Shown here piece after piece: positions 1,089 to 3,126 of a DNA stretch of 64,000 bases. The notes under the pieces are model-generated. The model was not told the DNA's origin. It worked only from the letters and a program-made list of their open reading frames with translations, and made no database searches. The position numbers and the translations under genes are program-made. The stretch's first letter is position 1. Every line of letters starts with the position of its first letter. Origin of the DNA: Moniliella sp. 'wahieum' (lineage: Eukaryota); assembly GCA_003971905.1 (NCBI GenBank), contig RSEE01000031.1:496001-560000 (forward strand), read 5' to 3'.

Positions 1089-1560
1089 ATGCCCGCCCTT
1101 ACGCCCCAGCAGCACCGCACCCTCCTTTCTCTCTACCGCCGTGCGCTCAAGCAGGGCCAAGTCAGCTTTGCGGGCGACCCCAGTGCGCTCGCCGGATGGT
1201 TCCGCCACGTGCGCGCCCAGTTCCAACAGCCTCTGCCCCCGGCACGGGAGGGCGAGGATGCGGTGGCGGCCAAGGTGCAGGAATGGGAGGAAGGGCTGCG
1301 CTATCTCCGCCACAACATCGTCCAAGGCGTACGGCAAGAAGCGACGGGCGCGTACCGTACGTGGCGCCTCACCCTTCCCGCCGTGTTGTGCGACAACTGC
1401 TTCGAGTTTGAGTACTGACTGTTTTGGTGCGGGTCGTCGGGTTGGCAGGACTGAGGATCACCCCGACACGGAGTGGGCAACAATGAAGATATCAAGAAGG
1501 CCAGTAAGAAGCTCGCTAGCTCGGGAGTGGGGTGCTGCGGGGGAGCAGGCGGTGCGGGCG
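1089..1560 (+). CDS. MZM1: LYR-motif protein Mzm1/LYRM7 (Rieske Fe-S chaperone for complex III); N-terminal moiety of an apparent fusion with bL31m
   Basis: MPALTPQQHRTLLSLYRRALK...VRAQF...LRHNIVQG...GAY, intron 1357-1448 (GTACGT...TACTGAC...CAG), then RLRI.PDTE.GNNEDIKK...GCCGG, matching the fungal Mzm1 pattern; two indels needed after the intron; no stop codon after the CCGG tail. Confidence 0.8.
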
Positions 1561-2021
1561 TGTCGAACGCCCGTCCTTTTTCCACCCTGGCTCGGCGGCC
1601 TCAGCGTAGTCCCAGCACCAGCACCAGCACTGGCTTGGCCCTGGCGCGTAGCTTTGCCACGTCTGCACCGACGATGGGCAGGCCAACCAAGTTGCATACG
1701 CCTGGCCCGTGTCCAAGTTCCCAATGACGATCGTGTTGAACGATGGATCGTCGATTGACGTGTTTACCTCCTCCTCCTCGTGCGGCGATGCGGTTGACCA
1801 GGGACCCAACGAACCACCCGCTGTGGAACCCGTTGGCAGAGCGGTCCAATGCGTTGGGTGTCGCGGTCGATATGGAAGGTCAACTGGGCCGCTTCCAAAA
1901 AAAGTTCTCCCAAGACGACTTTGCGTTTGCCGAGGAGGACTTGGACTGGATGTCGGGCGGGCAAGAGGCGACGCGGGGTGCGACGGTCGTCAAGACTTCC
2001 AAGAAAGGCAAGAAAAAGTGA
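1561..2021 (+). CDS. MRPL36: Mitochondrial ribosomal protein bL31m (Mrpl36-like) preceded by a presequence-like linker; C-terminal moiety of the apparent fusion
   Basis: Across frameshifts: KFPMTIVLNDGSSIDVFTSS.PRAAMRLTRDPTNHPLWNP...DMEGQLGRFQKKF...KKGKKK* (TGA 2019-2021), the fungal bL31m signature. Confidence 0.75.
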
Positions 2022-2127: not shown

Positions 2128-3126
2128 TCATATGCATACAAGTACAGCAGAAGCGAGGTGAAGCAACAAGGGGGGTAGAACGTAGCGAGTCGACCTAGCT
2201 CCGTGGCCTTTGCTCAAGTGCCGATCATCTTGCTCATGAGCGCGCTTGCGCTGAATCTCGGACGCCAGGTCATCCAACGCACTCTTGCGCACCGGGCGGC
2301 TGAGGGAGCGGAAGAGGTTGCGGCCGCCTTGGAGGCCGCACGGAATGCATTCAGACCCATGGGTTTCCCCCCGCGGGCTTGGGCGGACCCAACCCAATTT
2401 TGATGCCCCTGCCGTGCTAGGCGAGGCGGATGCGTCAACTGGCTTTTTGAGCTGGGTAGCAAAGCCAATCTTGATGGGTGCCGAAGCCTGGGTACGGTCG
2501 AGCTTGTGTTTTTCTTCTTCTTGCCTGGATCCTGCTCGGCCTTTTTGCTCCGCAGCAAGTTTTTGAGCGGCTTGAACCTGCTGCTCCAAAATCTTGCGCT
2601 GGCGCGATTCGTCGTCCAGCCGCACCCGATCCATCTTCTTCGCAGCGTCTTGGCGAGCCAGAGTTCCCGCCGAGTTGTCGATCCACTGGATGTACCACGA
2701 ATGGGGTACCTGCTCGTCTTCCTCCACTTTGGCTACACCCGTGCGGCCCAGGTGGCGCACAAAGCCCGCAAGGGAGGACCAGCGGGTAGCGTTCATGTGC
2801 AGGTGATGGCGCTCTTGGATGTACTCATTGTAGACCAGGTTGGCGCGGACCCTGCGTGTGCCGTAGCGGCGACTGAGCAGGTTGACAAACTGCCGCTCAA
2901 AGTCCTTGCTGAACTTATCGATCACTTTACCCGCCTGGGAGCCACCGACACCAGTGATGGCCTGCAACTGGCGCATGTGCGCCTCGGACTGGATGTGGCA
3001 CTTGTAGCCGTTGGCGTCGCGGCAGGGCTTGGAGCACACTTGGCAGTAGTACCGCAGCTTGGTCAGGCCACGCGCCTTTTGCGCGTTGGCCAGCGCCTTG
3101 GCGGAGCCTGCTTCGGCGCGACCCAT
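2128..3126 (-). CDS. KIN17: KIN17/Rts2 zinc-finger and winged-helix DNA/RNA-binding protein
   Basis: MGRAEAGSAKALAN..KARGLTKLRYYCQVCSKPCRDANGYKCHIQSEAHMRQ; ANLVYNEYIQERHHLHMNATRWSSLAGFVRHLGR; C-terminal end uncertain because of indels. Confidence 0.93.
   Translation of the reverse strand: MGRAEAGSAKALANAQKARGLTKLRYYCQVCSKPCRDANGYKCHIQSEAHMRQLQAITGVGGSQAGKVIDKFSKDFERQFVNLLSRRYGTRRVRANLVYNEYIQERHHLHMNATRWSSLAGFVRHLGRTGVAKVEEDEQVPHSWYIQWIDNSAGTLARQDAAKKMDRVRLDDESRQRKILEQQVQAAQKLAAEQKGRAGSRQEEEKHKLDRTQASAPIKIGFATQLKKPVDASASPSTAGASKLGWVRPSPRGETHGSECIPCGLQGGRNLFRSLSRPVRKSALDDLASEIQRKRAHEQDDRHLSKGHGARSTRYVLPPLLLHLASAVLVCI

Follow-up and report, generated by a model that had tools for sequence, protein, structure and literature searches.

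Mitochondrial processing peptidase (MPP) cleavage has been demonstrated for Atp25 of S. cerevisiae, which joins Rsf to the M domain (Woellhaf et al. 2016, PMC5063612), and Rsm22-Cox11 of S. pombe is cut after import (PMC8734313, PMC5063612, PMC4381221). LYR proteins have also been annotated as joined to other domains, and Lyrm7 is among the subfamilies with the most fusions (Angerer 2015, PMC4381221; Dohnalek 2024, PMC11293456). In this study we analyzed a gene at positions 1089–2021 (plus strand) of a 64,000-nucleotide (nt) stretch of the Moniliella sp. 'wahieum' assembly (contig RSEE01000031.1, positions 496,001–560,000; hereafter the window). After correction of draft indels, Mzm1/LYRM7 and the mitoribosomal protein bL31m form one gene with one open reading frame (ORF), a reading that is well supported. 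The segment between them is presequence-like and carries MPP-type motifs. An earlier note on this DNA had compared the arrangement to Arg5,6 and Rsm22-Cox11, an analogy that our analysis supports.

Gene structure and reading frame

The source assembly comprises 69.5 Mb in 223 contigs, and the window is an indel-rich fungal draft. A search of public sequencing runs gave no RNA run holding the region; contigs from two runs with a small share of it, X1 and X2, were aligned to it; the evidence from each is a single contig at a depth of about 2, neither piece spans the whole gene and their joint cover is only 1288–1840. The draft itself holds a single open frame from 1476 to 1703, which passes through the Cys-Cys tail of Mzm1 (1533–1538), an acid-free stretch and an ATG at 1674. 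The X2 contig (240 nt) lacks exactly the 92-nt intron at 1357–1448, continues from exon 1 to 1617, beyond the first candidate MPP site, and supplies two bases absent from the draft near 1461 and 1473; the library type of X2 is not recorded. The X1 contig spans 1581–1840, adding one base after 1703 and removing one at 1773. With these four one-base indels corrected and the intron removed, the gene reads as 280 codons with a single stop at 2019–2021, in the order Mzm1/LYRM7, a 46-amino acid (aa) acid-free linker and bL31m. The sequence of a relative, P0330 (seven Logan contigs), is likewise open in a single frame, from exon 2 of Mzm1 as far as the bL31m end, with both motifs and with zero Met between the Mzm1 tail and the motifs.

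Exon 1 (1089–1356) carries the start codon and the LYR three-helix core of Mzm1/LYRM7 (residues 1–89), as assigned from translation, Pfam and the AlphaFold model of homologue P0002. The intron begins with GTACGT, has a branch motif TACTGAC at 1413 and ends with TGGCAG; it lies at the same position in C12, a second fused gene of this genome. Exon 2 (1449–2021) starts with the last part of the Mzm1 core, which has the ELGNN motif, followed by a basic tail leading to Cys-Cys (1449–1538); the two missing draft bases fall in this segment. The linker (1539–1676) contains candidate MPP site 1, RPF↓ST (residues 132–136, 1572–1586), which is RAF↓ST in C12 and P0330, and candidate site 2, RSF↓AT (residues 157–161, 1647–1661), the arrows marking the putative cuts. 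The in-frame ATG at 1674–1676, 3′ of both motifs, is kept in C12 and P0330 and is Leu in the stand-alone bL31m copies of this genome. The bL31m (Mrpl36/YmL36) domain (1677–2021), identified by Pfam, the X1 contig and Protein Data Bank (PDB) profile matches, has an acidic DLDWMS segment and a Lys-rich end. We do not take the donor-like GTAAGA at 1504 to mark a second intron, as a branch site is absent downstream, the donor is absent in C12 and X2 reads through.

The claim of the earlier note that the Mzm1 tail runs on in frame is borne out by draft positions 1476–1703, by the X1 and X2 contigs and by P0330, as is its statement that no Met precedes the presequence-like stretch, since the sole ATG in 1449–1673 (at 1483) is out of frame. 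The single-gene layout that it described stands in that coding is continuous across the junction; the 92-nt intron had been missed. The indels that it suspected were confirmed by the independent contigs, and the X2 contig reads through the junction, where a stop after the tail and a separate bL31m ATG might have been expected of two genes. That errors of an indel-rich draft joined two adjacent genes is hardly credible: four indels do fall within 0.9 kb of the window copy, and the C12 draft has a stop after the tail, but the junction stays open both in independent contigs and in P0330, and of 27 homologues, which come from other assemblies, 26 have the fused form.

Identity of the two parts and distribution of the fusion

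Pfam matches to the broken window pieces were weak (LYR, E 0.061; bL31_N, E 0.028). Among full-length homologues, Complex1_LYR and bL31_N were both matched in 17 of 18 (E ≤ 0.05), three of these exceeding both curated cut-offs, and PF21492 (bL31_N) matched all 27 homologues at E ≤ 0.05, five of them above its cut-off. A profile built from the 18 full-length fused homologues (A1) matched yeast YmL36 (3j6b_V, E 6e-12) and a second fungal bL31m (6yw5_V, E 1e-11) in the PDB, and LYRM4 only at E 0.001; L14, Y15 and F26 are invariant in its alignment. Stand-alone matches of the N-terminal part are annotated at source as Mzm1 or Fmp36. In the AlphaFold model of the Violaceomyces homologue P0002, the LYR domain is confident (block predicted local distance difference test (pLDDT) 81–91, residues 1–90), with helices at 5–25, 30–48 and 53–73 followed by a hairpin and a helix; the LYR motif, the three-helix fold and the Mzm1-type C-terminal extension are all present. 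Residues 123–203 are predicted to be disordered (pLDDT <50) and the bL31m part is of low confidence. A fold search with this model gave no match at E ≤ 0.001, the best being other LYR proteins at E of at least 0.035, and the ESM Atlas gave leads below 0.9 only (LYR families 0.85; L31 0.84). Complex prediction for the Mzm1 and bL31m parts of P0002, made without an alignment, scored 0.01, which gives no answer and is evidence neither way. The tail Cys, as a Cys or Cys-Cys ending, is a conserved thiol feature: among fused homologues 36 of 37 have it, and among the short stand-alone ones 41 of 48. The homologue Pfam matches, the PDB profile matches and the source names agree with the identities first proposed for both halves. 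Mzm1/LYRM7 binds and stabilizes the Rieske protein (PMC9502982, PMC4381221), and a Rieske-chaperone role would be assigned here from that published function.

A bL31m query among proteins of at least 143 aa returned 27 matches, of which 26 combine the two parts in a single ORF; 18 of these are full-length and 8 were called from exon 2 alone. The scoring used profiles that were built from 18 of those same proteins. Names were retrieved for 30 proteins. All 13 named matches belong to Ustilaginomycotina, in which we place Ustilago, Sporisorium, Kalmanozyma, Pseudozyma, Melanopsichium, Thecaphora, Violaceomyces, Tilletia, Microstroma and Sympodiomycopsis. In a profile search of 50% representatives (best 150 of 1533), eight full-length fusions and seven exon-2-type pieces ranked first, and further fused proteins were found in Ceraceosorus, Tilletiaria and Tilletia horrida. 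Stand-alone bL31m occurs in the rusts and Tremellomycetes Kockovaella, Vanrija, Phakopsora and Melampsora, and stand-alone Mzm1 in Rhodotorula, Mrakia, Lichtheimia, Actinomortierella, Paraphysoderma and Pleosporales; the bL31m-only proteins P0020 and P0039 may represent either truncated calls or stand-alone genes of smut relatives. When exon 1 was the query of a word search against longer proteins, none of 328 candidates scored, which reflects a limit of sensitivity because the bL31m query did find fusions. In a bL31m tree of 29 selected rows and 147 columns, the deep forks were weak and the rust pair fell among smut sequences, so that this tree neither places the organism nor bears on a single origin. 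Conservation of the Mzm1-bL31m fusion across Ustilaginomycotina is well supported by these comparisons. The protein searches yielded single two-domain proteins, and relatives did not consistently carry two separate adjacent genes. Several database names give MZM1/LYR only, and bL31m can therefore seem to be missing from smut proteomes.

Junction segment, paralogues and processing

The strict motif R-x-[FY]-[SA]-[ST] was found in 30 of 37 fused-homologue linkers versus 1.3 expected from shuffles, and in none of the 37 Mzm1 cores or 37 bL31m parts that flank them. Among 50%-identity representatives, 11 of 13 carry it (0.37 expected); the sequences are related, and the counts are therefore not independent events. 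The MPP consensus quoted by Woellhaf et al. (PMC5063612) is matched by 21 of 37 linkers versus 0.9 expected. The motif is kept despite free variation in linker length (33–90 aa after the tail Cys), and the linkers are acid-poor and predicted to be disordered. That of the window has 0 Asp/Glu, 5 Arg and 14 Ser/Thr in 46 aa and a hydrophobic moment of 0.56 at residues 127–144, presequence-like by composition; both its acid-free character and its two R-x-F-S/A-T sites are as the earlier note described. Only 3 of 47 stand-alone bL31m leaders contain the strict motif, which is therefore not a general trait of bL31m presequences. An internal presequence-like junction segment with a conserved MPP-type motif is, judged by sequence, well supported. 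At the other end of the protein, the first 29 residues of Mzm1 are acid-free, with a net charge of +4 and a moment of 0.57 at residues 7–24. In the P0002 model this N-terminus is helix 1 of the LYR fold, and a separate presequence ahead of the first helix is absent.

Four bL31m copies and two detected Mzm1 copies are present in the source assembly. C12 (L003, 829–1767, minus strand) is the second fused gene, its bL31m part being 87% identical to the window copy. An X2 contig (depth 2.7), matched to C12 by eye, has one base fewer in a G-run and reads through the draft stop of that copy; the draft pattern speaks against a fusion for C12, and the read-through needs confirmation. The stand-alone bL31m copies C27 (L006/L001) and C5 (L007) share 99.7% identity, and their identity to the fused copies is about 81%. 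Both adjoin RPL4 and group with the window copy at 100/100 in the bL31m tree. No Mzm1 remnant was detected upstream of either in the stretches examined, and a third Mzm1 copy was not found. C5 carries a start codon of its own, an ATG at locus position 1946 on the minus strand. The leader that follows resembles a presequence, and its RTL↓AT, common to the stand-alone copies, falls opposite site 2 in the alignment. C27/C5 likely stems from a lineage-specific duplication and fission of the fused gene, in which Mzm1 was lost and a start codon acquired again. The two may be haplotypes, and a mixed assembly is a possible source of the extra copies, though the third Mzm1 was not found. Whichever the origin of C27/C5, bL31m supply in this genome is independent of the fusion. 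As a separate observation, RPL4 matched about 17 places on 15 contigs versus a single match for KIN17, as in a heavily duplicated genome keeping ribosomal protein genes, and perhaps in part from duplicated contigs.

We consider Mzm1-bL31m to be most likely an MPP-cleaved tandem precursor like Atp25 or Rsm22-Cox11. One spliced mRNA would encode a 280-aa precursor (~30 kDa) composed of Mzm1/LYRM7, a retained bL31m import signal and bL31m. Matrix entry would be led by the basic first Mzm1 helix, by the internal signal or by both, after which MPP would cut one or both R-x-F↓S/A-T sites. Mzm1 (~134 aa, 14.5 kDa) would be released to chaperone the Rieske protein and bL31m (~121 aa, 13.2 kDa) for incorporation into the large subunit of the mitoribosome, while the signal between the two sites would be discarded, as in Atp25. 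The natural split of C27/C5, with the RTL↓AT of the C5 presequence aligned to site 2, supports the precursor reading. The fusion may have arisen in a single event, in which an Mzm1 with a floppy C-terminal tail came to read into a downstream mitochondrial gene, and may persist mainly since cleavage renders it harmless.

Several points weigh against cleavage of such a precursor. Friedl et al. (PMC8734313) report that internal MPP cleavage requires a strong N-terminal presequence, which is a difficulty because the N-terminus here is LYR helix 1. Both window sites miss the narrow consensus R[AFR][FLY][AKLS][HSTQ] given by Woellhaf et al. (PMC5063612), their second letter being P or S, and the strict motif is absent in 7 of 37 linkers, including three of four Tilletia proteins, in which F-S-T is kept and the Arg is lost. 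None of the RNA pieces extends over both domains. The C12 draft has a stop just after the Cys-Cys tail and a bL31m-frame ATG at 1298. Finally, a Met precedes the motif in 19 of 37 linkers, mostly from Ustilaginaceae.

The last of these points would suit a separation at the RNA level, in which an internal transcription start or leaky scanning yields bL31m from a Met before the presequence, internal polyadenylation or splicing yields Mzm1 alone, and the fused ORF is minor. The C12 copy has such a Met, a GTG occupies the corresponding position of the window gene (1560), and internal polyadenylation has a precedent in S. pombe Aco2-L21 (bioRxiv 10.1101/2019.12.16.879015). Nevertheless, we regard this explanation as unlikely. 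The Met is present in only 3 of 13 representatives and absent in the window and P0330, and a separate start is therefore not a conserved route. Each gene copy has one branch-site motif, and a simple scan for A-rich signals of the poly(A) type was negative. Past the acceptor, the next AG is found at +7 in the window versus +8 in C12, so a second acceptor is not conserved, and X2 contigs continue across the tail and the linker of both fused copies.

Beside the fused gene, and convergent with it, lies a KIN17 gene (2128–3126, minus strand; Pfam E 1.6e-42), and a gene resembling RFC1 runs from 3414 onward on the plus strand; both frames are broken by draft indels.

Partners of Mzm1 and described tandem precursors

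Several Mzm1 matches carry long tails. In a search with a Calocera protein (320 matches), each of the 120 listed matches (P0124, P0194–P0312) combined an Mzm1 domain with a GGQ motif, and in 117 of them the N-terminal core was full; almost all are named Agaricomycetes or Dacrymycetes and some are annotated as C12orf65. The partner of Mzm1 in mushrooms and jelly fungi, as read from these sequences, is a C12orf65-like GGQ release factor. The three Dacrymycetes retain an RSFST/RAFST linker and most other Mzm1-release-factor proteins do not; of 110 such linkers, only 6 contain the strict motif, and these fusions therefore possibly work in a different mode. In Rhizoctonia solani (P0103) and Ceratobasidium sp. 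(P0108), two gene models join Mzm1 through an RSYST linker to ~550 residues without a Pfam match, which is possibly a third tandem partner or else a gene-model artefact.

The scarcity of the motif in mushroom linkers would also fit an uncleaved tether, in which the intact Mzm1-bL31m precursor anchors the Rieske chaperone at the central protuberance of the mitoribosome and links translation physically to complex III assembly. Retention of the fusion across the subphylum and the three Tilletia proteins without the motif Arg point the same way, and yeast bL31 belongs to a subcomplex of the central protuberance, another member of which, MrpL35, is connected with the assembly of cytochrome oxidase (PMC5683760). 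We nevertheless hold a tether to be improbable, as a cleavage-type motif is conserved within an otherwise unconstrained linker, stand-alone bL31m copies exist in the same genome and Rsm22-Cox11 reportedly does not act in its fused form (Angerer 2015, PMC4381221).

Retention of the fusion could instead reflect selection, compatible with cleavage, for fixed-ratio co-expression or for cytosolic masking of a ribosome-binding protein. Both named partners of Mzm1, bL31m and the C12orf65-like GGQ factor, bind the mitoribosome; LYRM4 is annotated as fused to a C12orf65-type factor in five insects (PMC4381221); and most tandem precursors yield mitoribosomal proteins, for which masking has been proposed (Woellhaf et al., PMC5063612). 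Against this, unmasked stand-alone bL31m is present in the source genome, the named rusts and Tremellomycetes, and the partners vary by lineage, with a third in Rhizoctonia and Ceratobasidium, so that we give such selection a limited chance only and favor tolerance as the reason why the fusion is kept. Two stand-alone bL31m copies beside two fused genes make a fixed 1:1 output unlikely in this organism. The earlier proposal of coupling at fixed stoichiometry is accordingly poorly supported: bL31m occurs in this genome in two additional copies that lack Mzm1, other fungi hold the genes apart, and in Agaricomycetes and Dacrymycetes the fusion partner of Mzm1 is a different one. A broader and tentative proposal is that Basidiomycota might use Mzm1 over and over as an N-terminal carrier for proteins that bind the mitoribosome, having recruited it independently in front of bL31m in smuts and relatives, of the C12orf65-like rescue factor in mushrooms and jelly fungi and of the ~550-aa protein in Ceratobasidiaceae. 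Such fusions might be kept by tying Rieske chaperone supply to the mitochondrial translation machinery or by masking the passenger until import, with import and cutting possibly proceeding without a classical cleavable presequence.

The surprising aspects of Mzm1-bL31m are its natural split and the swapping of partners. A fusion kept across a subphylum that includes a genetic model has probably split again in the source genome, where the site of the internal signal is now N-terminal. Elsewhere Mzm1 has other partners, and neutral, co-expression and masking models therefore become comparable. No description of the pairing was found in the literature searched, in line with the earlier note; table S3 of PMC11293456 could list the fusion, and most subscription papers lay outside the search. 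'L31' is absent from the available text of Angerer 2015 (PMC4381221) and 'LYR' from that of Burroughs and Aravind (PMC6514570). The pairing is apparently undescribed. The tandem-precursor design is already known, because most tandem precursors, as Woellhaf et al. note, yield mitoribosomal proteins.

Among described systems, annotated LYRM fusions resemble Mzm1-bL31m in joining LYR proteins to other domains, including an insect LYRM4-RF-1 (Angerer 2015, PMC4381221). Arg5,6 shares a presequence-like junction segment with an MPP site that is conserved among homologues (Friedl et al. 2020, PMC8734313); unlike the present pair, Arg5 and Arg6 belong to one pathway, their fusion is pan-fungal and its internal cleavage needs a strong N-terminal presequence. 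In S. pombe Aco2-L21, too, one fungal lineage has an Fe-S-related matrix protein as the N-terminal part and a mitoribosomal protein of the large subunit as the C-terminal part (bioRxiv 10.1101/2019.12.16.879015), whereas the short form of Aco2 arises by internal polyadenylation, of which the simple scan gave no sign in Mzm1-bL31m. Like Rsm22-Cox11, Mzm1-bL31m is a lineage-specific fusion in which a protein of the mitoribosome is paired with an assembly factor for a respiratory complex. The order is reversed, complex III rather than complex IV is concerned and both Mzm1-bL31m halves look soluble. Cox11 is a membrane protein. As in Atp25, two unrelated mitochondrial proteins share one ORF, with an internal targeting sequence between two MPP-type sites, and one partner is mitoribosome-bound while the other is tied to the biogenesis of oxidative phosphorylation. 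The proteins themselves differ, the ribosome binder is N-terminal in Atp25 and C-terminal in Mzm1-bL31m, and the cleavable N-terminal presequence of Atp25 is replaced by an LYR helix ahead of the putative cuts, which would make Mzm1-bL31m a test of internal MPP cleavage without a cleavable N-terminal presequence.
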